From Armatimonadota bacterium (GTDB lineage Bacteria > Armatimonadota > SYMT01): a stretch of DNA of 64,000 nt. This document shows positions 49,238 through 64,000 of this stretch, in pieces. Location of the stretch: contig JAWLHY010000001.1 in assembly GCA_041690135.1 (NCBI GenBank), positions 480,001-544,000 of the forward strand. The letters run 5' to 3'. The position numbers were made by a program, and so were the translations under genes. The first letter of the stretch is position 1, and every line of letters begins with the position of its first letter. A model generated the notes under the pieces. That model was not told the DNA's origin and searched no databases. It worked only from the letters and a program-made list of their open reading frames with translations.

Positions 49238-49427
49238 CACCTGAACGAGCGCCCGGATACGCACTACGGTACTCCGCACGACTATCGGTGTGCAAAAGCT
49301 GCCGCGGCGTGGGCGATCCGATCGGCTTCTCGTTGGAGCAGTTCGACGCGATTGGGCGCTACCGTGAGGTCGAAGAGGGCCGACTGATCGACGCGAACGG
49401 CGGGCTCCCAGACGGCATCCGGTTTGC
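49238..49427 (+). pseudogene. Degenerate, internally deleted fragment of a DUF1592/DUF1588 gene
   Basis: HLNERPDTHYGTPHDY and CKSCRGVGDPIGFSLEQFDAIGRYREVEEGRLIDANGGLPDG match two separate parts of the protein at 53521-56019. Confidence 0.8.
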
Positions 49428-49471
49428 CCATTCGAGCGAGGGTGCCGGTGGGGCCAAAACACCGCCAGGTG

Positions 49472-49768
49472 TCAGGCCGGCGGAGATTCTGGGGCGAATA
49501 CCTCACAACTTCCGTCTTCGCCCCGGAACCAGTACAACCGGTTACACGCTGGGCAGTTGTAGATCTGGGTGTAAATGGCACACGCCACCTCATCCAGTTC
49601 CTGAACGATCTCACGGTTCTGTGCGTAATCGTCGGACAGCCGTTCAGCTTCGGCTTCAGCGCGGACGAACCACTCCCGGTCAGCATCCTGAATGGCGATC
49701 CAGAGGTCCGGCTCTGGCGACGGGGTGGTGTCCATCACATGGCCGCACCGGCAAACGAGCTTGCCCAC
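49472..49768 (-). CDS. Cassette ORF, small Cys-motif protein
   Basis: CRCGH and CPACNR motifs; GGAGG RBS; TGA stop inside a GCCTGAC R''-like box. Confidence 0.65.
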   Translation of the reverse strand: MGKLVCRCGHVMDTTPSPEPDLWIAIQDADREWFVRAEAEAERLSDDYAQNREIVQELDEVACAIYTQIYNCPACNRLYWFRGEDGSCEVFAPESPPA

Positions 49769-49803
49769 TCCAACCTCCAGTCAGGGCTCCGCCAAAGGAG
49801 GGC

Positions 49804-49824
49804 GGCTAAGGCCCGGTTCACCCG
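49804..49824 (-). repeat. Degenerate half attC (L'/R' side)
   Basis: ggctaaggcccggttcacccg vs consensus gcctaacgccaagctcacccg. Confidence 0.5.
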
Positions 49825-49848
49825 ACGAGCACCCGCCAGGCCCCGTGA

Positions 49849-50343
49849 TCATGGGATATCTCTTGCCTCGAATTCCGTTGATGAAGTCGGCCTCTTGAGT
49901 CGTCGGAGACCGGTAGTGACAAGAAGGGCAGCCCAAATCAATGGTAGGAAGTATGGGACCAGGGTTTGGGACCCGAGTGCTCGCGTCCGGTCCAGCAATA
50001 GCGCGCCGAGCAGACAGCCGCCGATCACACTGACCCAACCTCCGGTTCTTCCCTTCCCCTGCAGGATCAGGACGCTGGCGAGCCCCGTTACAGAGCCCAG
50101 GGCAGCGCCTGCTGGGACCGTTGCTAACAGGGTCCAGCCGTATTGCCCCGTCGCGACTGTCCAACGGAAGAATAGCCAGTCGAACATGTAGGTCAGTAAG
50201 GAGAGGCCGAAGCCACCGGCAATGCTGCCGAGGGCGACACCCCCGACAATTCCCAAACCTTGCAACAGGTATCGTAGCCACCGCCCCCGGAGTGGGAAGA
50301 GCCATTCGATACGTTCGAGAGAAAGGGCCTTTCGTTTCATCAC
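49849..50343 (-). CDS. Cassette ORF, multi-TM membrane protein
   Basis: About 4 hydrophobic segments; lies between attC-like sites. Confidence 0.65.
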   Translation of the reverse strand: MMKRKALSLERIEWLFPLRGRWLRYLLQGLGIVGGVALGSIAGGFGLSLLTYMFDWLFFRWTVATGQYGWTLLATVPAGAALGSVTGLASVLILQGKGRTGGWVSVIGGCLLGALLLDRTRALGSQTLVPYFLPLIWAALLVTTGLRRLKRPTSSTEFEARDIP

Positions 50344-50370
50344 TGGCTTCTCTCTGGTCCGCTATGCGGA

Positions 50371-50424
50371 GCCGAACGCCAGGCTCACCCCGTCTGTAAG
50401 GATCGGGGACAGCGACTGCTAGGC
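50371..50424 (-). repeat. attC site (54 bp)
   Basis: gccgaacgccaggctcaccccgtctgtaaggatcggggacagcgactgctaggc; overlaps the TAG of the upstream ankyrin ORF. Confidence 0.8.
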
Positions 50425-50949
50425 CGTGTCAGTAATATGCATTGCGCCCCTGCTACGGAGATATTCCGCAATCTCCGGGTACTGATGCGTGCAGTCCAGC
50501 GGGGTGTTCCGATAACCCGTCTCGGGATCTTCTTCGATGGCATTAACGTCAGCACCCGCTTCGACCAGGATCTTCACGGCTTCCATCTGACCCCATGAGC
50601 AGGCGTATCCAAGTGCTACTTCGCCCGCGTCGTTGCGCTTCTCTGTATCCGCTCCGTATCGCAGGAGCAACCGCAGTCGCTCCAACTCACCTTCACAGGC
50701 GGCCTTCTGAAGTAGGGTCTGGCAAGCGGGTTCCGAGATGGCATCCGGGCTCAAGCCCGCTTGCAGTGCAGGTTCCAGAAGATCGGGAGCATGTCGGTCC
50801 AGGATCTCTATCCAGGTGCCGGCTTGACCTGGAAAGCGATGTAGCTCGGGGTATGCGGTGATGAGACGGATCACCGTGCTGCGGTCCTGCTTTCGTGCAG
50901 CCCGATAGAACCCCCAATAGCCTCTTTTGATTTCTAGCGAATCGGTCAT
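50419..50949 (-). CDS. Cassette ORF, ankyrin-repeat protein
   Basis: TLLQKAACEG, LLRYGAD, ALGYACSWG, LVEAGADVN, TPLD. Confidence 0.85.
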   Translation of the reverse strand: MTDSLEIKRGYWGFYRAARKQDRSTVIRLITAYPELHRFPGQAGTWIEILDRHAPDLLEPALQAGLSPDAISEPACQTLLQKAACEGELERLRLLLRYGADTEKRNDAGEVALGYACSWGQMEAVKILVEAGADVNAIEEDPETGYRNTPLDCTHQYPEIAEYLRSRGAMHITDTA

Positions 50950-50977
50950 GAGGTCAAGGTCGGTAAACTCTTGCGCG

Positions 50978-50997
50978 GCCTAGCGTCTAGCTCACCC
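50978..50997 (-). repeat. Degenerate half attC (L'/R' side)
   Basis: gcctagcgtctagctcaccc. Confidence 0.55.
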
Positions 50998-51011
50998 ACG
51001 CAGCCCCTGCA

Positions 51012-51665
51012 TTACCTGTCGCCTGTGCTGCTGCCGGCGCGGGGCGCCGTCGGTAGCGGCGGATGTTGGGCCGCGCTCCGACGCAGCAGCGCTACGATCT
51101 TGGCATCCCCCGCACGCGCTGCTACCTGAAACACCGTCTCCCCATACTCATTCTTGGCGAATGGGTCTGCCCCTCGGGCTAGAAGTAGCTGCGCAATCTG
51201 ATAGTGCTCAGCGGAGTACTCGGTATCCTCAAGCTCCAAGCGCACCGCTTCGTGGAGCGCCGTACCCCCCTGCTTGCGGCGGGCATTGACATCCGCACCT
51301 TTGGCCAACAGAAGGGACACGACAGCGACTCGACCTTCGTCCGCTGCACAGTGAAGAGCAGTGAAGTCATCAAGCCCTTTGGCGTTGACGAGCGCGCCGC
51401 CCTCGATCAAGACTTCGGCTGTATCGAGATCGACGGCATAGAAAAGCGGTGGGTTCTCGGAAGCGTTCTTGGCATTTGGATTCATACCACTGGCAATCAG
51501 CCGCTTTACCTCTGCCACATCACCCTGTCTCGCGGCGAAATGCAGCGGCGTCCAGCCAGCGTCTGGATCCCACACGCCATCCAACGACTGCGGAGGAGCA
51601 CAGCCCGCGAGCCCCACTACCAGGAAGCCGGCAGCCAGGTGGGTTACATGTAAGTGGAACCACAT
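51012..51665 (-). CDS. Cassette ORF, ankyrin-repeat lipoprotein
   Basis: Lipobox LAGC; GWTPLHFAA, TALHCAA, TALHEAV. Confidence 0.85.
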   Translation of the reverse strand: MWFHLHVTHLAAGFLVVGLAGCAPPQSLDGVWDPDAGWTPLHFAARQGDVAEVKRLIASGMNPNAKNASENPPLFYAVDLDTAEVLIEGGALVNAKGLDDFTALHCAADEGRVAVVSLLLAKGADVNARRKQGGTALHEAVRLELEDTEYSAEHYQIAQLLLARGADPFAKNEYGETVFQVAARAGDAKIVALLRRSAAQHPPLPTAPRAGSSTGDR

Positions 51666-51706
51666 ACCTTGCTCCAATACGGATGGCTTGCGACGCCGAT
51701 GTTGCG

Positions 51707-51760
51707 GCGCAACGCCAAGCTCACCCGTCCATACGGATCGGGTGCAGCGACCTGTTAGAC
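51707..51760 (-). repeat. attC site (54 bp)
   Basis: gcgcaacgccaagctcacccgtccatacggatcgggtgcagcgacctgttagac; overlaps the TAA of the upstream ORF. Confidence 0.88.
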
Positions 51761-52579
51761 CGCGCCCCAACCCAGCGGTTCCGCCTTCCGACAACCGGGA
51801 GTTCGCCGGTGCACCTGCTTTTGAAAGCCAGGTGAACTTCCCTTCAGTCTTCGCAGCATCCTCTTAGCGCCCATCGCGGCAGCATGATTGGGCGACTTAC
51901 CTACATCCTGTAGCACCTGAATCAGCCGTGTACCGTACTCGAAGCGAAAGCTGGAATCCGCGGCTTGGAGGACTTGCTGCGCGGGCTCCTCAGCGTACCT
52001 GGCCAGCACTGCATCTCGAAACCTGGGAAGGAGCCCAAGGCTCACAATCTGGCATGCCATTTCCCGAGCGGTGGGCTCTCGACTTTGGAGATACGAAACA
52101 ATACACTGCTTCTCCCGGGGCACTGGGTGGCCATCTATATGCCAAATCAGGGCTCGCAAGGGTGCTTCGAAACTCTCTCGCGGCCCACCATACTGCGACT
52201 CAGCATCTTTCAGATGCTGTTCCGAGAGCGTCAATAGCTCGCCACGAGCTGGAGCATAGGGTCGAAGGTTGCCAAGGATCCAAATCGCCAGGTCCCTGTG
52301 ACGCTCGGTGAGCCGCTGCGTACGGATATGGTCTGAGAACTCTGCGAACAGTTGTGCAAACTCTGCCCTCGGAACCGGTTTCTCTCGCGAATCGGCCATT
52401 CGCCCCGCCACATATTCGATGCGTGCCTGTGCCTCTTTCATCGAAGCCGTGCGGCTTTGCTCGGGCCGAATTGCCCAGGGCTTCGCTAGGGCAGCGCTCT
52501 TCACGGATGGTTGACTGCACCCCAGCAACATCAACGGAACAAGACCGATTAAACACATCCGAATGGCTTTCAGAAGCAC
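51755..52579 (-). CDS. Cassette ORF, putative helical (HEAT-like) lipoprotein
   Basis: Lipobox LLGC; GGGAGG RBS; helical composition. Confidence 0.65.
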   Translation of the reverse strand: MLLKAIRMCLIGLVPLMLLGCSQPSVKSAALAKPWAIRPEQSRTASMKEAQARIEYVAGRMADSREKPVPRAEFAQLFAEFSDHIRTQRLTERHRDLAIWILGNLRPYAPARGELLTLSEQHLKDAESQYGGPRESFEAPLRALIWHIDGHPVPREKQCIVSYLQSREPTAREMACQIVSLGLLPRFRDAVLARYAEEPAQQVLQAADSSFRFEYGTRLIQVLQDVGKSPNHAAAMGAKRMLRRLKGSSPGFQKQVHRRTPGCRKAEPLGWGAV

Positions 52580-52719
52580 GCATGCCTCCCGGCTCTAGCA
52601 TCAGACAGAGGGATTGACGTATGCTACGATCAAAGTCCGACTACCAGGCTATGCTGATATCACTTTCCTCAGTACGCTGCGGATTCAATACACCAGCGGG
52701 CCCGTGCCCCTCAAGCGCG

Positions 52720-52772
52720 GTCTAACGTCAACCTCACCCGTCCGTGCGGATCGGGTGCAGCGCCTGTCAGGC
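52720..52772 (-). repeat. attC site (53 bp)
   Basis: gtctaacgtcaacctcacccgtccgtgcggatcgggtgcagcgcctgtcaggc. Confidence 0.85.
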
Positions 52773-53520
52773 TGCAAATTACACCACTCCAGGTGGAAGG
52801 CAGCCCACGCCAACTGTCCGCTTGATTATACAGCGGCATTGCGATGCCGCCAACAGCAGCGCCACCTGCGGGCGGACGGTGTCTGTGGAACCATTCCTGA
52901 AAAGGCGCCAGTGGGCAGGTACCCTCGCAGTGGGTACCCGCTTCCAGCATCTCAATTACCGGACGGAGCAGTCCCACCTCCCGGTCATCCGCCGCTTCAA
53001 CGACTTCCACAGGCAAGGCGGTTCCGTTTCCCTGAATGCGCATCGTTCTGTCGCCCCTTCGGGGCTTTTCTGTGCGGGGGTCAGGTCCGGATGCTTGCCC
53101 CCCCCCCGCGCGGGCACCCGTCTCTCTCCGCCCCTTCCCTACGGACGCATGCGCCGGGGCTGCGAAACTGGTTCTTGCCGGAAACTGAACCGCCCTGGTT
53201 CCACGGGGCGTGCGTACCCGCGTGACCGTCCGCCAACGGCGGCAGCGCGTGCCGGAGGGGTTTCCACCCCTTGCGCACCGCGACAGTCAGGCCCTGGAGT
53301 TCCGCCAGCGTGAACGCACCGTACGGGGTGGGTGAGAGGGTCGTGGACGGACTCCCTCTGTCCCCCTTTGCGGCCCTTTGCGCCCCTTAGCGTCTTCGCG
53401 GTGCTCTGCCGGTGCAGGAAAAACGCACCTGGCGGAGTAGCTTAGGTACGGGGGCTCCTGCTTCCCGCCCATCATTCCGTGGCAACGGCAGGCCGAGCCA
53501 CTCCCGGACATCGAGTGAGC

Positions 53521-56019
53521 ATGCTGTTTCTTCGTAGCCTCCGCTTCAGCGACCCGCGCACGGCGTGGCTTTGCCGGTCGATGCCGCTCGTGCTGGTGGC
53601 CGGCGGACTGATCGGAGCGGCCCGCGCGAGCGGCGGGGCCACCGAACGTGCGCCCTCCCGGCCCGCTCCCGCCCGCAAGGCGCCGCGAAGGAACACGCCC
53701 GCGCCGGCTGCCCCGCGCCCGGCGCAGCCCGGTTTGGACCCCGCTGTGCTGGCGCGGTTCACCGGGCAGTACTGTCTCGGCTGCCACCGTAAGCCCAACA
53801 GCGCCGCGGGACTGGAGCTCGGCCTCCTGATTGGGCAGCCGGTCGCCCGGCATCCGGAGGCGTGGGAGAAAGTGGTCCGGAAGCTCCGCGCGCGTCAGAT
53901 GCCTCCGGTCGATCACCAGCGTCCGGACGAGCGCACCTATGAAACGGTGGCCGCGGGGCTGGAAGCCGCGCTGGACCGGGCCGCAGCGGCTCGTCCCGAC
54001 CCGGGCCGCACCGAAACGTTCCGGCGGTTGAACGCCACCGAATACCAGAATGCCATCCGCGATCTCCTGGCGCTGGAGATCGATGCCGCGGCGCTGCTGC
54101 CGCCCGAGCCGTCCAGCAACCGTTTCGATAACGTGACGGTCAGCGACCTCTCGCCCACGCTGCTGGACCGCTACCTCTCCGCGGCCCAGAAGATCAGCCG
54201 CATGGCGGTGGGACTGCCGGCGCGCTCCCCGGGCGGCGACACGATTCGGCTTCCGGCGGACCGCACACAGGAGGAGCACGTGCCCGGACTGCCGCTCGGC
54301 ACCCGCGGCGGGGCGCTCATTCCGTACACGTTCCCGGTAACGGGCGAGTACGAGATCTCCGTCCGGCTCAGTCGCGACCGCAACGAAGAGGTCGAAGGGT
54401 TGAAGGAGACGCACGAGCTGGAGCTGCTGCTGGATCGCGAGCGGATCGGGCTGTTCACCGTCCGTCCCCCGCAAGGCAGCGAGGGTCACGCGCAGGTCGA
54501 CCGGCATCTCAAGCAGCGACTCACGGTAACCGCCGGCCCGCACCGGCTGGGGGTGACCTTCTTGAAGAAGCCGTCTGCGCTGCTCGAAACCAAACGCCAG
54601 CCCTATCAGGCGCACTTCAACCTGCACCGGCACCCGCGCCTCTCACCGGCGGTCTATCAGGTCTCGATCACCGGGCCGTTCGGAAAGAACGTGCCCGGCG
54701 ATACGCCCAGTCGCCGCCGGATCTTCTCGGAAGCTGGGAAACCGGCGACCAGGAAGGCGATCGGCAAACCCGCCGAAGAGGAGCAGGCCCGGCAGATCCT
54801 CTCCCGCCTGATGCGGCGCGCGTACCGGCGACCCGTTACCCCGGAGGACCTGCAGACCCCGATGCGGTTCTTCCGCGAGGCACGCGCCGGAGGTCCATTC
54901 GAAGGCGCGATTGAAAGCGCGCTCAGTGCGATCCTCGTCTCCCCGAACTTTCTGTTCCATATCGAGCGCGATCCGCCGGAGGTGGCGCCGAGGACCGCCT
55001 ATCGCATCAGCGACGTGGAGCTGGCTTCCCGGCTGTCGTTCTTCCTCTGGAGCAGCCTGCCGGACGACACGCTGCTCGATCTGGCGGAACGGAAGCAGCT
55101 CAGCCGACCGGAGGTGCTGAACGCCCAGGTGCGCCGGATGCTGGCCGATCCACGTGCGAGCGCACTCGCCACGAACTTCGCCGCGCAGTGGCTGCACCTG
55201 CGGAACCTGGATTCGGCGACCCCGGACCTGCGGGCGTTTCCCGACTTCGACGATAACCTGCGGCAGGCGTTTCGCCGAGAGACGGAGCTCTTTTTCGAGA
55301 GCATCCTGCGCGAGGACCGCAGTGTGCTCGAACTGCTGACCGCGGACTACACCTACCTCAACGAGCGCCTGGCGAAGCACTACGGCATTCCGCATATCTA
55401 CGGCAGCCGCTTCCGCCGTGTCCCGCTGGCGGGGGAGCGCAAACGCGGCGGGCTGCTGCGACACGGAAGCATCCTGACGGTTACGTCCTACGCCACCCGC
55501 ACCTCGCCGGTGCTGCGCGGCAAGTGGGTCCTCGAAAACCTGCTCGGCATGCCGCCGCCCCCGCCGCCCGCGAACGTGCCGGCGCTGAAAGACAATACCG
55601 TGGCGGCCAATCTCACGGTACGCGAGCGGCTTGCGGCCCATCGCGCGAACCCCGCGTGCAAGAGCTGCCACGACGTGATCGATCCGATTGGCTTCTCGCT
55701 GGAGCAGTTCGATGCGATCGGACGCTGGCGCGAGGTTGAAGAGGGTCGCCCGATCGATGCGAGCGGCGGTCTTCCGGACGGCAGCCGGTTCGAAGGAGTG
55801 GCCGGGCTGGAACAGGCGCTGCGGAAGCGGCCCGAGCTGATCGCGCGTGCGCTCGCGGAGAACCTTCTGATGTACGGAGTGGGGCGCGTCGTCGACGAAC
55901 GGGACGCGCCCGCGATCCGGGAGGTCGTTCGCCACGCGAAGAAGGACGATTACCGGTTCTCGTCAGTGGTCATGGGGATCGTGAACAGCGTGCCGTTCTG
56001 CATGCGGAGAACGCCCTAA
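53521..56019 (+). CDS. DUF1587/1595/1592/1588/1585 multidomain protein with c-type haem motifs
   Basis: YCLGCH, RRLNATEYQNAIRDL, LVSPNFLF, LASRLSFFLWSS, TSPVLRGKWVL, CKSCH. Confidence 0.9.
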   Translation: MLFLRSLRFSDPRTAWLCRSMPLVLVAGGLIGAARASGGATERAPSRPAPARKAPRRNTPAPAAPRPAQPGLDPAVLARFTGQYCLGCHRKPNSAAGLELGLLIGQPVARHPEAWEKVVRKLRARQMPPVDHQRPDERTYETVAAGLEAALDRAAAARPDPGRTETFRRLNATEYQNAIRDLLALEIDAAALLPPEPSSNRFDNVTVSDLSPTLLDRYLSAAQKISRMAVGLPARSPGGDTIRLPADRTQEEHVPGLPLGTRGGALIPYTFPVTGEYEISVRLSRDRNEEVEGLKETHELELLLDRERIGLFTVRPPQGSEGHAQVDRHLKQRLTVTAGPHRLGVTFLKKPSALLETKRQPYQAHFNLHRHPRLSPAVYQVSITGPFGKNVPGDTPSRRRIFSEAGKPATRKAIGKPAEEEQARQILSRLMRRAYRRPVTPEDLQTPMRFFREARAGGPFEGAIESALSAILVSPNFLFHIERDPPEVAPRTAYRISDVELASRLSFFLWSSLPDDTLLDLAERKQLSRPEVLNAQVRRMLADPRASALATNFAAQWLHLRNLDSATPDLRAFPDFDDNLRQAFRRETELFFESILREDRSVLELLTADYTYLNERLAKHYGIPHIYGSRFRRVPLAGERKRGGLLRHGSILTVTSYATRTSPVLRGKWVLENLLGMPPPPPPANVPALKDNTVAANLTVRERLAAHRANPACKSCHDVIDPIGFSLEQFDAIGRWREVEEGRPIDASGGLPDGSRFEGVAGLEQALRKRPELIARALAENLLMYGVGRVVDERDAPAIREVVRHAKKDDYRFSSVVMGIVNSVPFCMRRTP

Positions 56020-56044
56020 CCAGGCACTGCCAGGCGCGCAGGCG

Positions 56045-56097
56045 GCGTTACGCCAGGCTCAGCCGTCCATACGGATCGGGCGCAGAGAATGTTAGAA
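56045..56097 (-). repeat. attC site (53 bp, degenerate R')
   Basis: gcgttacgccaggctcagccgtccatacggatcgggcgcagagaatgttagaa. Confidence 0.78.
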
Positions 56098-56102
56098 TCC
56101 GT

Positions 56103-56810
56103 TCAGCGCCTGCCTTCTATCCTCGCGAGATACATGGTAACCTCACGCACCACTTCCCCGGGGTTCGATGGGTCGTAGACTCCTGGGCTGATGGCGTCCG
56201 GGTCACCCGCTGACCACAGCCGAGACACTACCCGGTCCGAACTGGCTGCCCTTGGGGAGTAGGTGCGTATCCAAAGGCTCCCGTAGCCGGGGACAACCCA
56301 GGTCTCATACAGCCTCTTTGCCGTTGCGAAGAGCCGGTCCAGGTCCTGGCCGGTATTCAGGACGATGAAGGTACTTCCATACAACTCGGTCTCCCGGAGT
56401 TGCTCAACCTGAAGAAAGTCAGCCCGAAGCTGCTGCTCCTGAATGCCACGGAGGAGCGCCTCGCATAGCATCTGATCTTCCACCGCCACGATATTGCGGC
56501 TTCGCCCCATCTTCTCCAGATAATCCTGCCAGGCGTCCGGTGGCGGCGGCCACCGCTTCAGGTACGCATCCCGCTCCGTATCACGCTGCTGCCGCCAGAA
56601 GGGGAGGTACACATCACGCAGCCAAGCCTTGTAGATCCCCTGTCTGGACGGCCAGGGTTCCGCAACGGGCGACCAAGGTTTTATCTCGGGAAAGGTAACC
56701 CAAGGCGGGTGAGCTTCGGCCCCCTCCTGGTAGGCTCGGAGCTGTAGGGCGTACCATTCTTCCCATTCGGAAGGGCGTCCTCTCCAGGGCCATTGAAACG
56801 AGAATCGCAT
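56103..56810 (-). CDS. Cassette ORF, Trp/Pro-rich hypothetical protein
   Basis: GGAG RBS; PPWVTFPEI...WRQQ motif; bounded by attC on both sides. Confidence 0.65.
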   Translation of the reverse strand: MRFSFQWPWRGRPSEWEEWYALQLRAYQEGAEAHPPWVTFPEIKPWSPVAEPWPSRQGIYKAWLRDVYLPFWRQQRDTERDAYLKRWPPPPDAWQDYLEKMGRSRNIVAVEDQMLCEALLRGIQEQQLRADFLQVEQLRETELYGSTFIVLNTGQDLDRLFATAKRLYETWVVPGYGSLWIRTYSPRAASSDRVVSRLWSAGDPDAISPGVYDPSNPGEVVREVTMYLARIEGRR

Positions 56811-56838
56811 GGCGAACTCCAGGAGGGCATTCGAAGCG

Positions 56839-56891
56839 GTCTAACGCCAAGCCCACCCGTCCGTACGGATCGGGTGCAGCAACTGTTAGGC
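56839..56891 (-). repeat. attC site (53 bp, near consensus)
   Basis: gtctaacgccaagcccacccgtccgtacggatcgggtgcagcaactgttaggc. Confidence 0.9.
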
Positions 56892-56949
56892 TGCCCCGTT
56901 CAGCAGTATGGGTTGAGACATCCGCCTCGTTCTGGGTCGCCGTGCCTCG

Positions 56950-56958
56950 TGGTAGAAT
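56950..56958 (+). promoter_or_regulatory. Extended -10 promoter for the antitoxin (probably leaderless mRNA)
   Basis: TGgTAGAAT ending 6 nt before the ATG at 56965. Confidence 0.5.
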
Positions 56959-56964
56959 AAGGCC

Positions 56965-57204
56965 ATGACTACCTTCACAGTCCAGGAGATCCAGCTCGAT
57001 CCACGCAATTTCCTGCGTCGCCTCAAAGCGGGAGAGGCATTGGTAGTGGTTGAAGGGGAGCGCGTCCTGGCGCAGGTCCAGCCACTCGCGCCCGCAAGGA
57101 GTGCTTTGCGTCCTTACGGCCTTTGCGCCGGGCAGTTCACCGTCCCGCCGGAGTTTAATCAGGCACTCCCCTCCGGTATCCTGCAGGAACTCGAAGGGAG
57201 TTGA
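56965..57204 (+). CDS. Phd/YefM-like antitoxin (VapB type), orphaned
   Basis: FLRRLKAGEALVV...VLAQVQPL, RPYGLCAGQFTVPPEFNQALP; inverted relative to the array. Confidence 0.8.
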   Translation: MTTFTVQEIQLDPRNFLRRLKAGEALVVVEGERVLAQVQPLAPARSALRPYGLCAGQFTVPPEFNQALPSGILQELEGS

Positions 57205-57230
57205 GACTGCTGCTGCAGGACCTGTTAGAC
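57201..57230 (+). pseudogene. 5-codon VapC-like toxin stub fused to half an attC
   Basis: TTG AGA CTG CTG CTG (MRLLL) overlaps the antitoxin TGA and runs into tgcaggacctgttagac (attC L''/R'' half). Confidence 0.65.
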
Positions 57231-57680
57231 CGCACCCCGGACTTGTCGCCAACCTTCGTGAGTGGGATACCGGCCCACTTCCCGCAGCGTGTCCCGTTCC
57301 AGTAAGCGCTCGCCCGCATTGATTCCAAAGATCCGCACCGTGGCCTCGCCAATTTCCGTGAGCGGAATGATGGTGATGCCATCCACACCCAGGCGGAAAT
57401 GCTCACTCCATTGGTCGGTTCGCGGGTTGAAGAAACGTACCAACCGGTCGGATCCAGGCACCACCGAGGCGATATCACTGCCCTTATTTCGGTTGTAGAA
57501 GAGACAAGCTAGCGCGAGATTTGCCGCTGATGTCGGTCCGCCATGCTTCTCGCTAATGATGTGGTCCACCTCGCAGCCAAAGAAGGTGTCTTCCTCGTGG
57601 ATCAAGCAGTATTCGCACAACCGCTCGGCCCGTGCGAAGGCGAGGCGCCGGAGCTCCGCGCTGATGTAGGAGGTGCTCAC
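57225..57680 (-). CDS. HNH endonuclease
   Basis: CEYC, EVDHIISEKHGG, NLALACLFYNRNKG, FFNPR, WSEHF. Confidence 0.88.
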   Translation of the reverse strand: MSTSYISAELRRLAFARAERLCEYCLIHEEDTFFGCEVDHIISEKHGGPTSAANLALACLFYNRNKGSDIASVVPGSDRLVRFFNPRTDQWSEHFRLGVDGITIIPLTEIGEATVRIFGINAGERLLERDTLREVGRYPTHEGWRQVRGAV

Positions 57681-57685
57681 GAGAT

Positions 57686-57928
57686 CTACTCAGCAGTCAA
57701 GTGCCGCCGCGCCCGAGCCTTTGCCAACCGCATGAGGTGTTCCAGGTGAAGAGCGCTCTGCAACTCCGAGCTCTCTTCCGGCGCCAATCCTGTGGTCTTC
57801 TCTCGGGCCAACAGCTCCGCCACCCGACTACGTGCCGCTTCCGAAGGACGATAATCGGCGATCTCGCGTGGACTCGTTCCTGCACCTAGAAACTCAATGG
57901 TCTCTTCATAGGCTCGTGTTACTGCCAT
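57686..57928 (-). CDS. Small helical partner of the HNH (putative antitoxin)
   Basis: 80 aa, GGAGG RBS, 5 bp upstream of the HNH. Confidence 0.7.
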   Translation of the reverse strand: MAVTRAYEETIEFLGAGTSPREIADYRPSEAARSRVAELLAREKTTGLAPEESSELQSALHLEHLMRLAKARARRHLTAE

Positions 57929-58077
57929 GGCTGGTCCTCCACGCCCAGTATACCGAAATCTGCACCGATGACGGGTCGCCGCAAGCGCAGGGCCTCCGCT
58001 TGGCCGTTGAACACCGCCAACTCGGTGTAGCCTTTTGACTTCTGGATCGCGTCCGGGACCGCAACGTCTTCTGCCAT
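57919..58077 (-). pseudogene. Truncated paralogue of the Clp-N cassette 5' end
   Basis: MAEDVAVPDAIQKSKGYTELA vs MPEDVAVPETIQKSKGFTELA (59564); upstream sequence also shared. Confidence 0.75.
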
Positions 58078-58105
58078 CGTCCTTCCTCTACCCACTGCCG
58101 GAGCA

Positions 58106-58218
58106 GCCTGACCCCACGCTCACCCGCCGGCGGGCTCTGCCTTCCTCATCACGGAGTCGCCCGTCACGCCTTTGGGTGCGGCGACTGGGACGCTGGACAG
58201 GTGCACCGGCTGCTAAGC
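58106..58218 (-). repeat. Long-type degenerate attC with a duplicated R''-side end
   Basis: gcctgaccccacgctcacccgcc...gggtgcggcgactgggacgc then ggtgcaccggctgctaagc. Confidence 0.65.
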
Positions 58219-58224
58219 TGGTAT

Positions 58225-58689
58225 TCAGTTGCTCCCGAACTTCCACCAGGGCCGACGGCCACTCACTTCCTTGACCTCTGCGGGTTCAGCATCGGTCTCG
58301 TAGAGCCGTAGTTTGAGCTGGTCGGATGCCCACGCCATTTCTGCGTCCAGATCCAGGAAGACGCGGTCGCGCCGCTCGCCGTCGAGACCTGACGCGACCC
58401 ATGAGAACACCCCGCGCAACTGCTGGGTGCCCTCATCAGACGATACCTGCAGTTCAAAGGACGTTGCCAGACCGGCACGGGTGACGATGATCTTATCCGG
58501 AGCTTCTTTGGATCTGCGTCCGCCGGTGAGAAAGTCCGGCTCTGGAGCCAGGCGCAGCCAATCGAGACGAGCGGAGGGCGTCTGCGCGCGGAGTAAGCCC
58601 TCGATCTCCCGTCTCACTGCCTGGCTCGGATCATCTCCCAACCAACCCAGCCAGTGATCCCTGGTTGTGAGTGCTGTGAAATCGTCCAT
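58225..58689 (-). CDS. Cassette ORF, hypothetical protein with C-terminal RRPWWKF motif
   Basis: 154 aa, bounded by attC sites. Confidence 0.7.
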   Translation of the reverse strand: MDDFTALTTRDHWLGWLGDDPSQAVRREIEGLLRAQTPSARLDWLRLAPEPDFLTGGRRSKEAPDKIIVTRAGLATSFELQVSSDEGTQQLRGVFSWVASGLDGERRDRVFLDLDAEMAWASDQLKLRLYETDAEPAEVKEVSGRRPWWKFGSN

Positions 58690-58723
58690 TGCAAAGGCCA
58701 GCTCCCGGCTAATGCCAGCTCCC

Positions 58724-58776
58724 GGCTAATGCCAGCCTCACCCGTCCCTTAGGATCGGGTATTGCGCCTGTCAGGC
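58724..58776 (-). repeat. attC site (53 bp)
   Basis: ggctaatgccagcctcacccgtcccttaggatcgggtattgcgcctgtcaggc. Confidence 0.78.
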
Positions 58777-58801
58777 CGTGATCACCAGTCCGCGCACCAA
58801 C

Positions 58802-59002
58802 CTAATGACCATTCACCCCATATAGAACCGAGCGAACAGTGATGTAACACCCGAGCCAGAACGCCAGTTTGAGAAGCACACTCGGAGGATTCGTCAGTGT
58901 CGAACCGATCAACACCATTGTGATCCCCAGACAAAACCAGACGCCTGTCGGTAGGTATCTCAACCACCGGCCCTTCAATGGCCAACTGTCTCTGAGGTTC
59001 AT
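58802..59002 (-). CDS. Cassette ORF, small two-TM protein (66 aa)
   Basis: MNLRDSWPLKGRWLRYLP...; fills the cassette between two attC sites. Confidence 0.6.
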   Translation of the reverse strand: MNLRDSWPLKGRWLRYLPTGVWFCLGITMVLIGSTLTNPPSVLLKLAFWLGCYITVRSVLYGVNGH

Positions 59003-59020
59003 GATGGTTCTCTCGCTGCG

Positions 59021-59073
59021 GCCGAACGCCAGGCTCACCTTTTCCTACGGATCGGGTGCAGCACCTGTTAGGA
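59021..59073 (-). repeat. attC site (53 bp)
   Basis: gccgaacgccaggctcaccttttcctacggatcgggtgcagcacctgttagga. Confidence 0.82.
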
Positions 59074-59081
59074 CACCTCGT

Positions 59082-59564
59082 TTACGCCAGTGGATTCTCT
59101 GCGATGATGCTGCGCACCAGGTCAGGTTGGACGCCGTGTTCGCGCAGCACTTCGGAAGCCAGGCTCTCTTGTAGGAGAAGGCCAAGCAGCAGATACGGGG
59201 TGCTGACGTAGGGACAGTCAAATCGGCGAGCTTCGTCGCGGGCAAATGCCAGCGCCTGTTCTGCGGCTGGCGTCAGCTTCTCCTGCTTGATTAACTCCAG
59301 ATCCCACGGTCCCGACCCGCGCTCGGCTCGCGCCAGGACTGCTTCTCGGATCGTCTCCGGTGTGACTCCGAGGCGTGCCAGGAGGTCCAGAGCCAGCACG
59401 TTCTCCCGAGGCTCCAACAACGCCAGCAAGATGTGCTCCGGTCCGATGGCCTGCTGTCGCAGTCGTATGGCCTTCCCCGGCGCATTGAGCACCGCGGCCA
59501 TTGCCAACTCGGTGAAGCCTTTCGACTTCTGGATCGTCTCCGGGACCGCAACGTCTTCTGGCAT
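59082..59564 (-). CDS. Cassette ORF, stand-alone Clp N-terminal (Clp-R double repeat) protein
   Basis: IGPEHILLALL, LLARLGV, LTPAAEQAL...EARRF...VSTPYLLLGLL. Confidence 0.82.
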   Translation of the reverse strand: MPEDVAVPETIQKSKGFTELAMAAVLNAPGKAIRLRQQAIGPEHILLALLEPRENVLALDLLARLGVTPETIREAVLARAERGSGPWDLELIKQEKLTPAAEQALAFARDEARRFDCPYVSTPYLLLGLLLQESLASEVLREHGVQPDLVRSIIAENPLA

Positions 59565-59583
59565 TGTCCTTTGTCCACCCACT

Positions 59584-59729
59584 GTGGTTTTAAGCCCACG
59601 TCCTCTTGCGCGCCGCAATTCAGGATCCCGTCCAGATGAACCCAGGCCGGGCATCGGCTTGTAGTAGCGTGGCTTTAGCCCGGGTCCCCTCGCGATCAGC
59701 AATTCAGGATCCCGTCCAGGTGAACCCAA
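59584..59729. repeat. Two tandem ~84-bp direct repeats with REP-like motif
   Basis: gcaattcaggatcccgtccagRtgaaccca at 59615 and 59699; each preceded by gtggYttta(a)gccc. Confidence 0.8.
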
Positions 59730-59772
59730 GTCGACGTTATGAAGAACCAGGAAGCGCTTGTCCTATTCGGAG

Positions 59773-60414
59773 TCACTCACGCTTGGCGACTTCGATCCTG
59801 ATAAACTCCGGAAGATACGACGGCGTACAGTTCTTGGCCACGTGCTCGTCCTTGTAGAGCCCCAGTGCTTCCCCCAGCTGGATGCACCGGGATCGGAATT
59901 CAGGCTCGTGAACCCCAATCTGGCCGGCGCAGAAGTTCATGGCCCATTGAACTTCGGGCTCGGCATGAGCCATATCGCTTTCCAGGGAATCCAGCAGGTC
60001 TGCACTGTTTCCGGGAGGTGCTTGTCCGACCCAGCGCAGGCGCGCCTGGTGATACCAGAACCAGCGCCGCAGAATGGGGGAAGGGTTCTCTTCCCACGTC
60101 GCGATCAGGGAGACCAGTTTCTTATCTTTGGTGAGCTGGTTTGCCAGCAGCCAGTCGGCCAGTTGGGTGCGCTCTTGCGGGTCATGCTGGAGCATATCCG
60201 CAGCCAGCCGATCGATGACGCTTTCTGCGAGGAGCTTCTTGTCGAAGATGAGGGTCGCCAGAAGGCGAGGGGTGTATTCCCCCGTGGACCAGAGCTCCAT
60301 TGCCAGATCGTGGTCTTTCTTGATCTCGGCGCCACGCTTTTTGAGGTCGCCCAGCTTCGGGTTGCCCTGGGTGATCTCGGCGACAAGCTCTTTTGCTCTT
60401 GCCGATAAAGGCAT
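59773..60414 (-). CDS. DNA alkylation repair protein (AlkD-like HEAT repeat)
   Basis: KLGDLKK..EIKKDHDLAMELWSTG, VQWAMN, GEALGLYKD..NCTPSY. Confidence 0.85.
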   Translation of the reverse strand: MPLSARAKELVAEITQGNPKLGDLKKRGAEIKKDHDLAMELWSTGEYTPRLLATLIFDKKLLAESVIDRLAADMLQHDPQERTQLADWLLANQLTKDKKLVSLIATWEENPSPILRRWFWYHQARLRWVGQAPPGNSADLLDSLESDMAHAEPEVQWAMNFCAGQIGVHEPEFRSRCIQLGEALGLYKDEHVAKNCTPSYLPEFIRIEVAKRE

Positions 60415-60438
60415 TTAGTCTCTCTCCCTCTACGAACT

Positions 60439-61119
60439 TCAGAGTACGAAGTCGCCCTCGTCCAGGTCGTAGGACTGTACCACCCTCGCCCCCTCCAGCA
60501 CCCCGGGGCCGCCGATCAACTCGGTCAACCCTCCGGCCGCCAGCACGCGATCTTTGTGCATCAGGACGCCCAGGCCGTGGTCCCGGTCCCACCCGGTCTG
60601 GAACTCGAACGAGCTGAACCCGCACTCGTCCAGACCACTGTCCGCCAGACCGATGCCCACGAGTTTGAACAGGTGGTCGACCGCCGCCAACTCCTCCATC
60701 GCCACCTGGCGCTCAACCACCTTCCAGTACTTCTGGTACTCCCTGACGTGCGGCAAGTCCTCATCGCGGAACTGCGCCAGCCGCTTCCTGTGCCAGGCGA
60801 ACAGCTTGCGGCGGAGAGCCGCCTCGATCGCGGCGGGGTGGGCGAGGATGAAGTCCCACGCGCGCTCCTGGAAGGCGCCAAACCCGGTTGGGCTGGCCGC
60901 GTACAGCGCGACCTCGATGTCGGAACTCGCGTCGCGGGCCGACGGGCAGCCCGGGTCGCCGCTCGGCCCGCGGGATTTACTGACCCTCAGCTTCGGATAC
61001 TCGGGGTACGGTGGGGCGACCGCCACCACCGCGTCTCGCAGCAGCGGCTTGGCCGTGCGCCAGAGCCGCCGACCGTCGAACTCAGGGTCGGGCTGGAAAG
61101 GGTCGAGAAACGTGTTCAT
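60439..61119 (-). CDS. Cassette ORF, DUF6985-like (immunity-like) protein
   Basis: C-terminal FEFQTGWDRDHGLGV motif. Confidence 0.65.
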   Translation of the reverse strand: MNTFLDPFQPDPEFDGRRLWRTAKPLLRDAVVAVAPPYPEYPKLRVSKSRGPSGDPGCPSARDASSDIEVALYAASPTGFGAFQERAWDFILAHPAAIEAALRRKLFAWHRKRLAQFRDEDLPHVREYQKYWKVVERQVAMEELAAVDHLFKLVGIGLADSGLDECGFSSFEFQTGWDRDHGLGVLMHKDRVLAAGGLTELIGGPGVLEGARVVQSYDLDEGDFVL

Positions 61120-61142
61120 AAAACCGCGGCCCTTCCTCTGCC

Positions 61143-61230
61143 GCCGAACGCCCAGCTCACCCGCCGCGTGACCAGCCTCAGTTCAGCGGTAACCGCCGTC
61201 CGTGCGGATCGGGCGCAGCGACTGTTAGGC
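61143..61230 (-). repeat. attC site (88 bp, long/hybrid type)
   Basis: gccgaacgcccagctcacccgcc...cgtccgtgcggatcgggcgcagcgactgttaggc. Confidence 0.85.
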
Positions 61231-61255
61231 CGACATCCCGCCACAACCAGCGGGC

Positions 61256-61537
61256 CTATGACGCCGCCGCGTCCACCCAGATTTCGGTGCCAATGGGCAC
61301 ATCGTCCTTGTTGAGCGAGCGAAAGCAGCAAGCCCACCTCCGCTCCTTAGGCGGCGGGATACTAAAGTCGTACTGGATCGACAATTGAGCCACCAGTGAA
61401 GTGCCGTCCGGCCTGTGCAGTTCCGCGGCCACCAGCGCCTCTCCAGGAAACTCATTCAAGAGTGGCCCGGGAACTACGACGAGGCCGCGGCCGGCTATAT
61501 GGAATCGATCCTCGACCGTGAGTAGCACTCGCTTCAT
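61256..61537 (-). CDS. Cassette ORF, small EF-Tu domain-II-like beta-barrel protein
   Basis: LTVEDRFHIAGRGLVV resembles EF-Tu D2 IEDVFSISGRGTVV; ends KDDVPIGTEIW. Confidence 0.65.
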   Translation of the reverse strand: MKRVLLTVEDRFHIAGRGLVVVPGPLLNEFPGEALVAAELHRPDGTSLVAQLSIQYDFSIPPPKERRWACCFRSLNKDDVPIGTEIWVDAAAS

Positions 61538-61557
61538 CGCTACCTGACCGAACTGCA

Positions 61558-61643
61558 GCCTAGCCGCAAGCTCACCCGCACCGCGACTCGCCCCTGCCCA
61601 ACGGTAGCCGCCGTCACGCCGTCGGGTGCGGTGACTGTTAGAT
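61558..61643 (-). repeat. attC site (86 bp, long type)
   Basis: gcctagccgcaagctcacccgc...gtcgggtgcggtgactgttagat. Confidence 0.8.
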
Positions 61644-61805
61644 CGCTATTCGGTTCCCAGCGCACCCACTTGCCACAGCTCTACCAACGACCGAAGAGGC
61701 AGGCCACGTAACCGGGTTCCAACCACCACCGTCCGGGTCTCTAACTTGAAAGCTACCCTGCGGGGCCCAATTCCTTCACGGCATCCAGTTTGTCTGGTAT
61801 CGAGG

Positions 61806-62135
61806 TTATTGACCTTCCGCATACGCGGCGATACAGCCACCGCACATCCACTCGCCGTCATCGTAAATGCCGGAACCACAGTCCGTAGTCTGGTGGCATC
61901 TCGAGCAGGTAGGACCGCTAACCCGCCGCGGTTCGTAAACCGGCTTGTGTGGAGGCTCCGGACGCAAGTCACGATAGGGGCCGCGCGTTTGTATACTTTG
62001 CCGGGGATCGGGCACAACGGCAAAGCTCCCGCAACGCGGACACCACCGCCCACCCCTGTGTTCAATGGTCTGCGTTCTCCGACACTTCGGGCAAGTTACG
62101 GATTCACCTGGTTGCTGCTGGTTGCTGAATTGCAT
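61806..62135 (-). CDS. Cassette ORF, double zinc-ribbon protein (start uncertain)
   Basis: CPKC, CPRC, CSRC, CGGC. Confidence 0.55.
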   Translation of the reverse strand: MQFSNQQQPGESVTCPKCRRTQTIEHRGGRWCPRCGSFAVVPDPRQSIQTRGPYRDLRPEPPHKPVYEPRRVSGPTCSRCHQTTDCGSGIYDDGEWMCGGCIAAYAEGQ

Positions 62136-62167
62136 TGGCGCATGGTCTCCTCAACGCTAAGGGTGCG

Positions 62168-62220
62168 GCCTAATGCCGAGCTCTCCCGTCTATTCGGATC
62201 GGGTGCAGCGACTATTAGGC
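62168..62220 (-). repeat. attC site (53 bp)
   Basis: gcctaatgccgagctctcccgtctattcggatcgggtgcagcgactattaggc. Confidence 0.85.
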
Positions 62221-62223
62221 CGC

Positions 62224-62658
62224 TTACTTGCTTTCGTGCGCGCCGCCGGACCAAATCTCTTGTTTCAACTCTTCCAGGGTTGTGATGGAAAGCAGCCCGC
62301 ACTCCTCTGACGGACCAGGTTGACCCTGGTTACAGGAGCGTAAGTGCTTCCACCAGGCTCGCAGCAGCAAAAGCGCCGCCCTCTCCACCGTAACTCCGGC
62401 GGCTGGGCACCAAGCTACGGGCACAGCGGCTTCCCAATGCCCCATGAAGCCCCAACTACCTCCACGATCATCCTGCTGCCAGAGAATCCACCGGTCTCTG
62501 TTCTTGGAAAGCAAATATTTCACAGGCCAACCTGGCCCATAGGTCCAGTATCCTTCCCCAACCAGCTTTGCGGTTCGCGGCAGCTGGCTCGGGCAGTCTT
62601 GCGTCAGCCACGCACCTGGCGGTTGATGGATGACTATGGTGGGGGTCCCAAGGCTCAT
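62224..62658 (-). CDS. Cassette ORF, Trp-rich hypothetical protein
   Basis: 144 aa; stop 3 bp from attC. Confidence 0.65.
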   Translation of the reverse strand: MSLGTPTIVIHQPPGAWLTQDCPSQLPRTAKLVGEGYWTYGPGWPVKYLLSKNRDRWILWQQDDRGGSWGFMGHWEAAVPVAWCPAAGVTVERAALLLLRAWWKHLRSCNQGQPGPSEECGLLSITTLEELKQEIWSGGAHESK

Positions 62659-62707
62659 CGTTGATCCGTCACTTCGTCTGTCGGAATCAATACCACCAAG
62701 CGTTGCG

Positions 62708-62761
62708 GCCTAACGCCAAGCTCACCCGACCGTACGGATCGGCTGCAGCGGTTGGTGAGGC
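62708..62761 (-). repeat. attC site (54 bp)
   Basis: gcctaacgccaagctcacccgaccgtacggatcggctgcagcggttggtgaggc. Confidence 0.82.
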
Positions 62762-62842
62762 CTCACGACACTGAAGTTCATTGCGATGAAGAAAATGGAA
62801 GGGGGAGAGTGTCATCGGTCGCAGGGGGTACGGCCCTGCCCG

Positions 62843-63184
62843 TCAACTCTCGGAGTCATACCCGAACTCGCGGAGTTCCTGCGAGCAGCGGCAAGCGTTG
62901 GCGATCTTCGCGGCCCATTGGCCGGCGGCTTCGCGCGACGGGAGTTCCAGGACACAGAAGCCGCCGTCGAACTCCTTCGTCTGGGGATACGTTTCGTTTG
63001 TGACCGTGCCGTCTGCGGCGACCATGAGGGGTGCGACCTCCGCGTTGATGCCACCACCGAACACGTACACGCCGGCAGTCTTCGCCTCGCGTATGACCGG
63101 GTGTGCCGCTTCGCCCACGGCGGCAAAGTCCTCGGCAGGGACGTCCATCGCCCTTCCCGGAAAGGAGATCAGGTACTTCGCCAT
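62843..63184 (-). CDS. Cassette ORF, YciI/DGPF-family protein
   Basis: MAKYLISFP, EAKTAGVYVFGGG, YPQTKEFDGGFCVL, EAAGQWAAKIA...QELREF. Confidence 0.85.
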   Translation of the reverse strand: MAKYLISFPGRAMDVPAEDFAAVGEAAHPVIREAKTAGVYVFGGGINAEVAPLMVAADGTVTNETYPQTKEFDGGFCVLELPSREAAGQWAAKIANACRCSQELREFGYDSES

Positions 63185-63222
63185 CCTTCGGTCCTTCGGT
63201 TGAGGTCGGTGCTGTTTGCGAG

Positions 63223-63275
63223 GCCCAACGTCAGGTTCACCTGTCCGTACGGATCCGGTGCCGCGACTGTTATGC
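63223..63275 (-). repeat. attC site (53 bp)
   Basis: gcccaacgtcaggttcacctgtccgtacggatccggtgccgcgactgttatgc. Confidence 0.85.
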
Positions 63276-63298
63276 CGCACTCCGCACTGGGAAAGAGC

Positions 63299-63790
63299 TC
63301 AGTCAGCACCCTGCGTTTCAGGGTCGGCACCGCTTTCAGTGAGCTGACCGGCTCTGCGATTCAGGGTCGGATTGAGGACGCCTTTCATCTCCTCTTCGAG
63401 TTTGCGCAGGTCCTCACGAGTGACAGCGACTTGAACGGCAGAAAAGCAAACATTCGCCCTCGCCCACGCCCGTGTAGCGTTGTTGAAGGCAAGGGTACGT
63501 TCCTTCCCTCGCGCCTCGGGGTCGATCGCGGGGATGGTCATTCCGCTTCCGTACTCATCCCAGACGTAGAGGCTGAATTGGTCGCCTCCGCGTCCTCCAC
63601 CGAAGTGCGTGCCTACTCTCCCGCCGAGCGATACGTATGCGATACCAACGTATAGACACTCGTCCTGAAGACCACGACACTCGCGCCACCAAGCTGCGTA
63701 GATCCCGGCACCGACCGGAATCTCGCGCAACTGGTCGTAGGAGTAGCGGCTTCCGTCGCGAAGTTCTCTCGCAATCTCATCTGCTGTCAT
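63299..63790 (-). CDS. Cassette ORF, GIY-YIG nuclease family protein
   Basis: GIYAAW...LYVGIA...LGGRVGTH...LEEEM...LNPTLN. Confidence 0.8.
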   Translation of the reverse strand: MTADEIARELRDGSRYSYDQLREIPVGAGIYAAWWRECRGLQDECLYVGIAYVSLGGRVGTHFGGGRGGDQFSLYVWDEYGSGMTIPAIDPEARGKERTLAFNNATRAWARANVCFSAVQVAVTREDLRKLEEEMKGVLNPTLNRRAGQLTESGADPETQGAD

Positions 63791-63829
63791 GCTGTCGCCC
63801 CGTTGTGGCCACTCGTGCGCTGCCGAGCG

Positions 63830-63926
63830 GCCTAACGCCAATCTCACCCGCCTCGACCCACACCACTGCTTCCGCTAACGGCCGTACGTGACGCTGGGGC
63901 GGCGTCGGGTGCAGCGACTGTCAGGC
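63830..63926 (-). repeat. attC site (97 bp, long type)
   Basis: gcctaacgccaatctcacccgcc...gtcgggtgcagcgactgtcaggc. Confidence 0.85.
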
Positions 63927-64000
63927 CGTCCGCAGCATCGCCAGTTGCTCGCGGCCGGTCATTGGTCGTCAGTGTCCATCGGATTAGCAGTAACCCCAGG

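Follow-up and report, generated by a model that had tools for sequence, protein, structure and literature searches.

Sedentary chromosomal integrons, such as the superintegron of Vibrio cholerae with its Vibrio cholerae repeat (VCR) sites and the integrons of Xanthomonas, combine a chromosomal location with attC sites that resemble one another, cassettes uniformly oriented away from intI, and diverse small open reading frames (ORFs), including paralogous cassettes. Clusters of attC sites lacking an integron integrase (CALINs) were reportedly defined together with IntegronFinder by Cury in 2016. The locus described here lies in a 64,000-nt stretch of DNA from an Armatimonadota genome (the window, i.e., the whole stretch analyzed; G000:C1:480001-544000). 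It shares the above features of sedentary integrons and differs from them in having no functional IntI, a C as the first extrahelical base, ten of its 17 sites at 53-54 nt, and an Armatimonadota host. With a probability of approximately 85%, it consists of two adjacent integrase-dead remnants of a chromosomal integron, arrays A and B, which are CALINs with an intI pseudogene at each head. At least two clustered attC sites without an intact IntI are CALINs by definition, i.e., decayed sedentary integrons. Thus, where an annotation made from the letters alone (the sequence-only reading) had proposed a sedentary integron or a CALIN, the CALIN option holds, with 17 model-supported sites in two clusters and no IntI.

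In the available part of its text, Neron (2022; PMC9024848) defines CALINs, regards them as degraded integrons, and gives an average of approximately six attC sites per CALIN. The present locus resembles them in that two or more attC sites follow one another and the neighborhood is free of IntI genes. Unlike them, it documents its own decay, with intI fragments, a common attI-like stretch and a putative promoter at the heads, and many mutated R-box cores; moreover, its two tandem units carry 4-5 and 13-14 attC sites, compared with the average of approximately six (PMC9024848, available part).

The genome comprises 9.1 Mb in 25 contigs, with 65% GC and 97% completeness. The attC sites were called with a covariance model, R1, built from 16 repeat copies of the window locus. 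A 21-nt left-arm motif, allowing at most three mismatches, matched ten times, always on the plus strand, while none was expected from 100 shuffles, and repeat finding in the window returned families of 9, 12, and 11 copies. In the whole genome, an nhmmer profile of ten copies gave 25 matches at E < 1, 17 of which fell in C1:530370-546398, and R1 gave 22 matches at E ≤ 1, 16 within the same 17 kb and 6 elsewhere. The 14 in-window sites scored 44.9-80.7 bits on the plus strand, and the same places scored 7-22 bits on the minus strand. All 17 model-supported sites (14 strong and one weak in the window, two beyond it) had one orientation. A genome-wide REP/BIME-type distribution (repetitive extragenic palindromes and bacterial interspersed mosaic elements), which the sequence-only reading had named as evidence against an integron, was not seen; the repeat was clustered in one orientation inside the 17 kb.

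The positions listed in that reading were largely correct. Of its 14 full repeats, 13 were strong R1 matches, while the copy at 58106, of the long form, was degenerate (19.5 bits, E 0.007). At 50978, where a half copy had been supposed, the long-form site is complete (50975-51077; 44.9 bits across all 62 model positions). The halves at 49804 (left arm) and 57214 (right arm, approximately 57210-57232) and the R''-like remnant at 49471 were visible by eye but had no model match. The proposal of a single array at 49471-64000 was right as to a cassette array, but there are two of them, separated by the core gene at 53479-56019 and reaching 2.4 kb past the window. The short minus-strand ORFs noted between the repeats were confirmed: at 13 of the 17 sites, the stop of an ORF of 50 aa or more lay between −5 and +58 nt relative to the R'' end, and two or three of these stops lay inside R''. 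An Rfam scan of the window at gathering thresholds gave no match; Rfam is without an attC family. Scans of genome and metagenome contigs with exact-core patterns (own genome excluded) returned two Streptomyces records and one metagenome contig, which were rejected as attC arrays; these three matches covered the central hairpin alone (model positions 14-49, 16-46, and 19-42).

The plus-strand consensus reads, in order, GCCTAAC / GCCAA / GCT-CACCCG-TCC / GTAC / GGA-T-CGGGTG-C-AGC / GACT / GTTAGGC. It fits RYYYAAC (R') and GTTRRRY (R'') with the plus strand as the bottom strand, and the R stem was 76% paired. The unpaired central spacer measures 5 nt on one side and 4 nt on the other, and a terminal loop is present. 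An extrahelical T was found in 16 of 16 aligned sites and an extrahelical C in 15 of 16, both on the 3' arm opposite AAC with a 6-bp stem between them. In the named structure, 80.7% of cells were paired, compared with 29.5-41.1% when the partners were slid by 1-3 columns. The attC architecture proposed in the sequence-only reading was thus borne out, with RYYYAAC on the 5' arm of the plus strand, two extrahelical bases 6 bp apart on the opposite arm, and an unpaired spacer. [quoted passage not shown] There, the first extrahelical base is "usually a G", whereas it is a C in the present sites. The sites fall into two length classes, ten of 53-54 nt and seven of 85-97 nt. The short class (window 50371-63275) lies under the attC range of 57-141 bp in the same part of PMC5027507, and short forms also occur in two IntI-bearing genomes of the phylum (G010 and G124).

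Intact IntI was absent from the 97%-complete genome, the best match to the integron-integrase model TIGR02249 reaching 53.9 bits against a curated cut-off of 265 bits, which was used for all IntI calls. This match was a 48-residue C-terminal fragment (C2:764477-764620), 71% identical to the IntI of G010. Remnants at the arrays were searched for with the IntI of two relatives and then with a profile of 24 phylum IntI proteins, the latter over a 123-kb region. Among 3411 six-frame segments, the Xer-like recombinase at C1:560721 and the C2 IntI fragment ranked first, followed by the two array heads. The fragments at the heads lie on the strand and side that fit integron geometry, diverging from the cassettes. 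Accordingly, where attI and intI had been predicted past the right edge of the window, just small intI fragments were found (66958-67121), along with another at 52948-53016, at an internal head that had been overlooked.

The heads resemble each other. The right ends of arrays A and B are homologous, each running from an attC-like site through the common attI-like stretch to a copy of a dispersed repeat. Each head also has one sigma-70-like promoter, the sole promoter-like site of its region (52600-53500 in the case of array A), with 0.1-0.2 expected. The dispersed repeat, with GC-rich hairpins (GCCCCTTCGGGGC), stands beside both heads (53010-53230 and C1:546718-546867) and may have been a mediator of rearrangement.

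The right flank of array B was compared with G006, a genome of the same family. There, the orthologues of the PSD gene (80% nt identity; end at 10173) and of the DUF1552 gene (84.5%; start at 10177) are separated by 3 nt, and the next gene is also syntenic. In the window genome (G000), the PSD and DUF1552 genes are 11.1 kb apart. As the gap of 3 nt in G006 contrasts with 11.1 kb here, array B with its head is an insertion relative to G006. Upstream of the PSD gene there was no synteny with G006 (tblastx chains were spurious), and hence no empty site for array A was found.

The left flank of array A is a 3' fragment of a PSD/PSCyt-family gene, which is 84.8% identical to the G006 orthologue. 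Because both boundaries are common to arrays A and B at similar divergence (approximately 82-83% identity), the two units would go back to an old segmental duplication of a unit made of PSD 3' end, array, and head. A simple tandem duplication was rejected, since it would place the intact PSD gene first and the opposite order was seen. Farther left, two small plus-strand ORFs (45642-45878, 78 aa; 48972-49205, 77 aa) without a Pfam match have 3' ends that are 78-79% identical and bracket a molybdopterin-binding oxidoreductase gene.

The kinship of the sites was examined across the phylum. R1 had no match at E ≤ 0.001 in the six other genomes of the window's family. It matched in 12 of 150 relatives, mostly in two other families (8 of 13 and 3 of 7 genomes), and 8 of these 12 carried an IntI passing the TIGR02249 cut-off. 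In G038, six sites on the intI strand lie directly upstream of a cut-off-passing IntI; G010 shows four sites in mirror image, and the same site-to-IntI geometry was found in G120 and in both arrays of G147. Since R1 detects arrays of this kind upstream of IntI genes elsewhere in the phylum, on the same strand, this attC type is phylum-wide. Thus, the earlier view of an attC family private to the locus was not sustained, because bona fide IntI genes of other families have sites with the same R- and L-box core beside them. Overall, IntI above the cut-off was present in 24 of 400 sampled phylum genomes and in none of the six in the window's family; close homologues of one phylum IntI, where named, are called "integron integrase" by their sources. 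The complete Armatimonadota integrons (G010, G038, G120, G147, and others) share with the window locus the core (GCTCACCCG ... T-CGGGTG-C-AGC), the AAC and GTT boxes, and the orientation relative to intI. Unlike the window genome, they have an intact IntI, and their sites are mostly approximately 100-124 nt long, with spacers 1 nt longer than those of the window and mostly long loops.

In G120 (C1:3289189-3861002) and G147 (C16:902437-923838), very large same-strand arrays of approximately 109-nt sites were observed, and one 18-kb sample of each held more than 30 sites. A second G120 array stands tail-on to a partial intI (3898055-3898708), a non-canonical geometry.

Over both arrays, there are approximately 20 diverse cassettes, mostly without a Pfam match. 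The GC content is approximately 0.60 inside both arrays and approximately 0.67 in the flanks. A repeat search of the window found no cassette common to arrays A and B, and the HNH cassette (57225-57680) has a 59%-identical homologue within an attC-bearing locus of another genome (G102). Table 1 summarizes the features; positions past the window edge are given in the adjoining locus L001, whose coordinates plus 64000 are window coordinates.

Table 1. Features of the two cassette arrays, their heads, and their flanks (window coordinates unless marked L001 or C1).
Feature	Position	Strand	Remarks
PSD/PSCyt-family gene, 3' fragment	49239-49435	+	left flank of array A; 83% over 135 nt to 55656-55790
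Array A	49471-52774	-	approximately 5-6 cassettes; four model-supported attC sites, left half at 49804, R'' remnant at 49471
Array A ORFs	49472-49768, 49849-50343, 50419-50949 (ankyrin), 51012-51665 (ankyrin), 51755-52579	-	Pfam
attC, short, 54 nt	50371-50424	+	R1 62.0 bits; stop of ORF 50419-50949 inside R''
attC, long, 94 nt	50978-51071	+	R1 44.9 bits
attC, short	51707-51760	+	R1 79.7 bits; fold z -2.65; TAA stop of ORF 51755-52579 inside R''
attC, 53 nt, closest to array A head	52720-52772	+	R1 78.2 bits; homologous to degenerate array B head site
attI-like head stretch, 105 nt	52776-52880		one other genome copy, C1:546412-546485 (L001 2412-2485), 82% identical
Sigma-70-like promoter into array A, Pc candidate	52825-52853	-	TTGGCG-17-TATAAT, 10/12
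intI N-terminal (SAM-like) domain remnant, array A head	52948-53016	+	IntI residues 31-53, 61% over 23 aa
Dispersed short repeat, like a miniature inverted-repeat transposable element (MITE) or REP, not integron-specific	53010-53230	+	47 blastn alignments elsewhere, on 16 contigs
PSD/PSCyt core gene (DUF1592/1588/1585/1595/1587)	53479-56019	+	Pfam; GC at third codon positions (GC3) 0.84; parts array A from B, left flank of B
Array B	56045 to approximately 66400 (in window to 64000)	-	approximately 13 cassettes in window; ten strong and one weak attC sites
Array B ORFs with Pfam match	57225-57680 HNH, 59082-59729 Clp_N, 59773-60414 DNA_alkylation, 60439-61119 DUF6985, 62843-63280 YCII	-	
Array B ORFs without Pfam match	56103-56810, 57686-57928, 57919-58095, 58225-58689, 58802-59038, 61256-61537, 61646-62065, 62224-62658, 63299-63847	-	
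attC, 53 nt, distal end of array B	56045-56097	+	R1 63.2 bits; starts 26 nt past PSD gene stop
attC, 53 nt, top-scoring copy	56839-56891	+	R1 80.7 bits; R stem, L stem, and bulge in fold, z -2.18
Right-arm half copy (L''-spacer-R'')	57210-57232	+	adjoins HNH ORF stop; read directly, no model match
attC, degenerate long form	58106-58190	+	R1 19.5 bits, E 0.007; R'' lost
attC, 53 nt	58724-58776	+	R1 59.0 bits; fold z -2.95
attC, 53 nt	59021-59073	+	R1 65.3 bits
attC, long, 88 nt	61143-61230	+	R1 68.6 bits
attC, long, 86 nt	61558-61643	+	R1 49.2 bits
attC, 53 nt	62168-62220	+	R1 78.8 bits; minimum free energy fold equals consensus structure
attC, 53 nt	62708-62760	+	R1 64.7 bits
attC, 53 nt	63223-63275	+	R1 70.3 bits
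attC, long, 97 nt, last in window	63830-63926	+	R1 59.5 bits
attC beyond window	L001 716-811	+	R1 62.9 bits
attC beyond window	L001 2055-2149	+	R1 56.4 bits
Degenerate head site of array B, beyond window	L001 2352-2398		nhmmer
Sigma-70-like promoter, array B head	L001 2444-2472	-	TTGGCA-17-TATAAT, 11/12
intI fragments, array B head	66958-67121 (L001 2958-3121)	+	collinear, profile positions 174-197 and 314-331
DUF1552 gene	L001 3140-4492	+	directly right of array B and its head

Several observations weigh against reading the locus as two decayed integrons. Strict RYYYAAC was found in only 7 of 16 sites and strict GTTRRRY in only 5 of 16; in the site at 56045-56097, for example, the R' triplet is TAC instead of AAC. 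No covariation beyond sequence conservation was detected, as 429 of 500 shuffles reached the observed pairing. Folding, which the sequence-only reading had put forward as a check, gave mixed results: single-sequence DNA folds were weak, with z ≤ −2 in just 3 of 14 sites and several no better than shuffles. With covariation absent and folds mixed, the structural case rests on the conserved asymmetric palindrome and not on compensatory change. In addition, the attC calls came from our own model R1 and not from the attC model of IntegronFinder, and approximately 3% of the genome is unassembled, so the no-IntI result covers 97% of it.

The evidence at the heads is subject to similar reservations. 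The intI remnants were individually marginal: in the case of array A, tblastn with the G010 IntI gave E 0.042 genome-wide and 2e-4 when restricted to 34 kb, the phylum profile gave E 0.0034 (positions 27-54), and Pfam PF13495 gave E 0.045, under its cut-off; in the case of array B, the two fragments had E 0.72 and 5.8. The attI-like stretch did not significantly resemble the attI region of G010 or that of G038; what they had in common was limited to words of 8-9 nt and a loose ATTATAC motif. The site adjoining the stretch is itself attC-like. Moreover, the duplication model has no explanation for a truncated PSD copy upstream of the intact one. Finally, among 88 R1-aligned sites of eight other genomes, the extrahelical C, the extrahelical T, AAC, and GTT were each present in 87, compared with AAC intact in 11 of 16 and GTT in 8 of 16 at the window locus, a comparison biased by the fact that the relatives' sites had to pass a foreign model and decayed ones would have been missed. 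The loss of core triplets here relative to the relatives fits erosion after loss of the enzyme.

The strongest competitor, although unlikely, is a live sedentary integron, in which an intact IntI in the unassembled part or on an unbinned replicon would shuffle the cassettes in trans. The perfect core kept at 62708, 63830, L001 716-811, and L001 2055-2149 and the mostly open cassette ORFs agree with it, as does a completeness of 97% rather than 100%; moreover, the absence of a common cassette despite boundaries that are approximately 82-83% identical suggests turnover after the duplication. However, no TIGR02249 match above 54 bits occurs in 9.1 Mb, intI survives in the genome only as three separate fragments, and AAC or GTT has been lost in a third or more of the sites.

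Less probable still is that the hairpins are substrates of a tyrosine recombinase other than IntI, such as the Xer-like protein at C1:560721-561818 with its C6 paralogues; the locus would then be an integron-like system served by a different enzyme. Although this recombinase, on the plus strand approximately 14 kb to the right, is the nearest one to array B, it is not an IntI, core genes separate it from the array, and its paralogues stand away from any attC cluster; in addition, the sites are of the type found beside true IntI genes in the phylum, and IntI fragments lie at the heads. An intergenic repeat of the REP/BIME or MITE type unrelated to integrons is the least probable of all. The short GC-rich palindrome between genes would suit such a repeat, and a truly dispersed repeat does exist in the genome, beside both array heads. 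Against this, 16 of the 22 model matches lie in 17 kb in one orientation, the asymmetric bulges occupy one arm, and the same model finds arrays at IntI genes elsewhere.

The favored interpretation, two decayed chromosomal integrons, implies the following course of events. Each cassette consists of one ORF followed by one attC, and the cassettes, which lack promoters of their own, stand in a row on the minus strand. In the live state, IntI would have moved cassettes in and out through recombination between attI, at the head of the array, and attC in the form of its folded bottom (plus) strand, and the first cassettes would have been transcribed from a promoter within the attI region. The platform would have entered between the PSD-family gene and the DUF1552 gene that is its partner. 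Later, the unit of PSD 3' end, array, attI, and intI would have been partly duplicated, and both intI copies would then have been lost by deletions. The locus is now probably frozen, and rearrangement would occur only by homologous recombination between attC copies or by IntI acting in trans. We infer past recombination activity and present expression; the cassettes closest to the heads may still be expressed from the conserved putative promoters there.

Other attC-type sites and recombinases were observed in the genome. A second attC cluster lies at C2:763731-769280 (L002 8731-14280), with R1 matches at L002 8731-8833, 12346-12378, and 14220-14280, a weaker site at 9337-9403, and one minus-strand cassette ORF (8822-9358). 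The C2 IntI fragment starts directly after an attC-like site; thus, that intI has lost its 5' 85%. Two adjacent sites in minus orientation (41 bits each) occur at C9:163773-164359 and one site at C18:96608-96705, and no IntI was found near either. The Xer-like tyrosine recombinases form a family of three genes (C1:560721-561818, C6:47511-48707, and the truncated C6:34335-34955); none of them is an IntI, and they probably belong to another mobile element.

Several cassettes were also distinctive. Outside the window, L001 863-2050 (minus strand; window 64863-66050) encodes a 395-aa fusion of a CAP12/Pycsar-type TIR domain (Pfam E 1e-26) with a Macro domain of the ThsA type (Pfam E 1e-14); PADLOC gave a TIR effector match at E 1e-43 and a ThsA model match. 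By its predicted domains, it is a one-gene defense-type effector in the form of an integron cassette. An 82-nt stretch that is 89% identical in two cassettes (58016-58097 and 59503-59584) corresponds to a Clp_N-family N-terminus, truncated in the first, and the Clp_N cassette contains an internal tandem duplication of an 84-nt unit (59590-59733).

The host had been guessed to be an Armatimonadota bacterium, and this was supported by 11 of the 12 organism-named matches among the best 120 GyrA relatives, which were named Armatimonadota or Armatimonadetes bacterium, Capsulimonas, Capsulimonadaceae, and Fimbriimonadales; the one exception was a partial protein from an "Actinomycetota" metagenome-assembled genome. 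The sequence-only reading knew of no characterized integron in this lineage. None was found in the literature searched, although 24 of 400 phylum genomes encode IntI. Searches for integrons with Armatimonadota or Armatimonadetes returned papers that, judged by their listings, were resistome and microbiome surveys, and survey supplements may list the phylum; searches pairing IntegronFinder with Armatimonad* returned nothing, and the available part of PMC13554262 does not describe integrons of the phylum. In the available part of Ghaly (2021; PMC8352920), 11 taxon-specific attC models are given, none of them for Armatimonadota.

For integron biology in general, the locus offers no new mechanism; in a phylum that has received little study, it is a genuine fossil, though an ordinary one, of a known kind of element. 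It records the death of a chromosomal integron in two platform copies with different intI pieces and eroding attC cores, at an insertion point fixed by the empty site in a related genome. The Armatimonadota attC type is recognizable and could join the taxon-specific classifiers, being absent from the models in the available part of PMC8352920. A broader joint reading is put forward only tentatively, since we consider it more doubtful than probable: an undescribed Armatimonadota integron lineage (approximately 6% of sampled species) might have a phylum-wide attC with a conserved L box, C in place of G as the first extrahelical base, and copies down to 53 nt, and might have reached its end state here as a domesticated, still-expressed cassette island, with a tandemly duplicated platform, a lost integrase, and a kept promoter. 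If this is true, the locus would be a cassette bank, including the TIR-Macro defense-type gene, that an incoming IntI could mobilize again.

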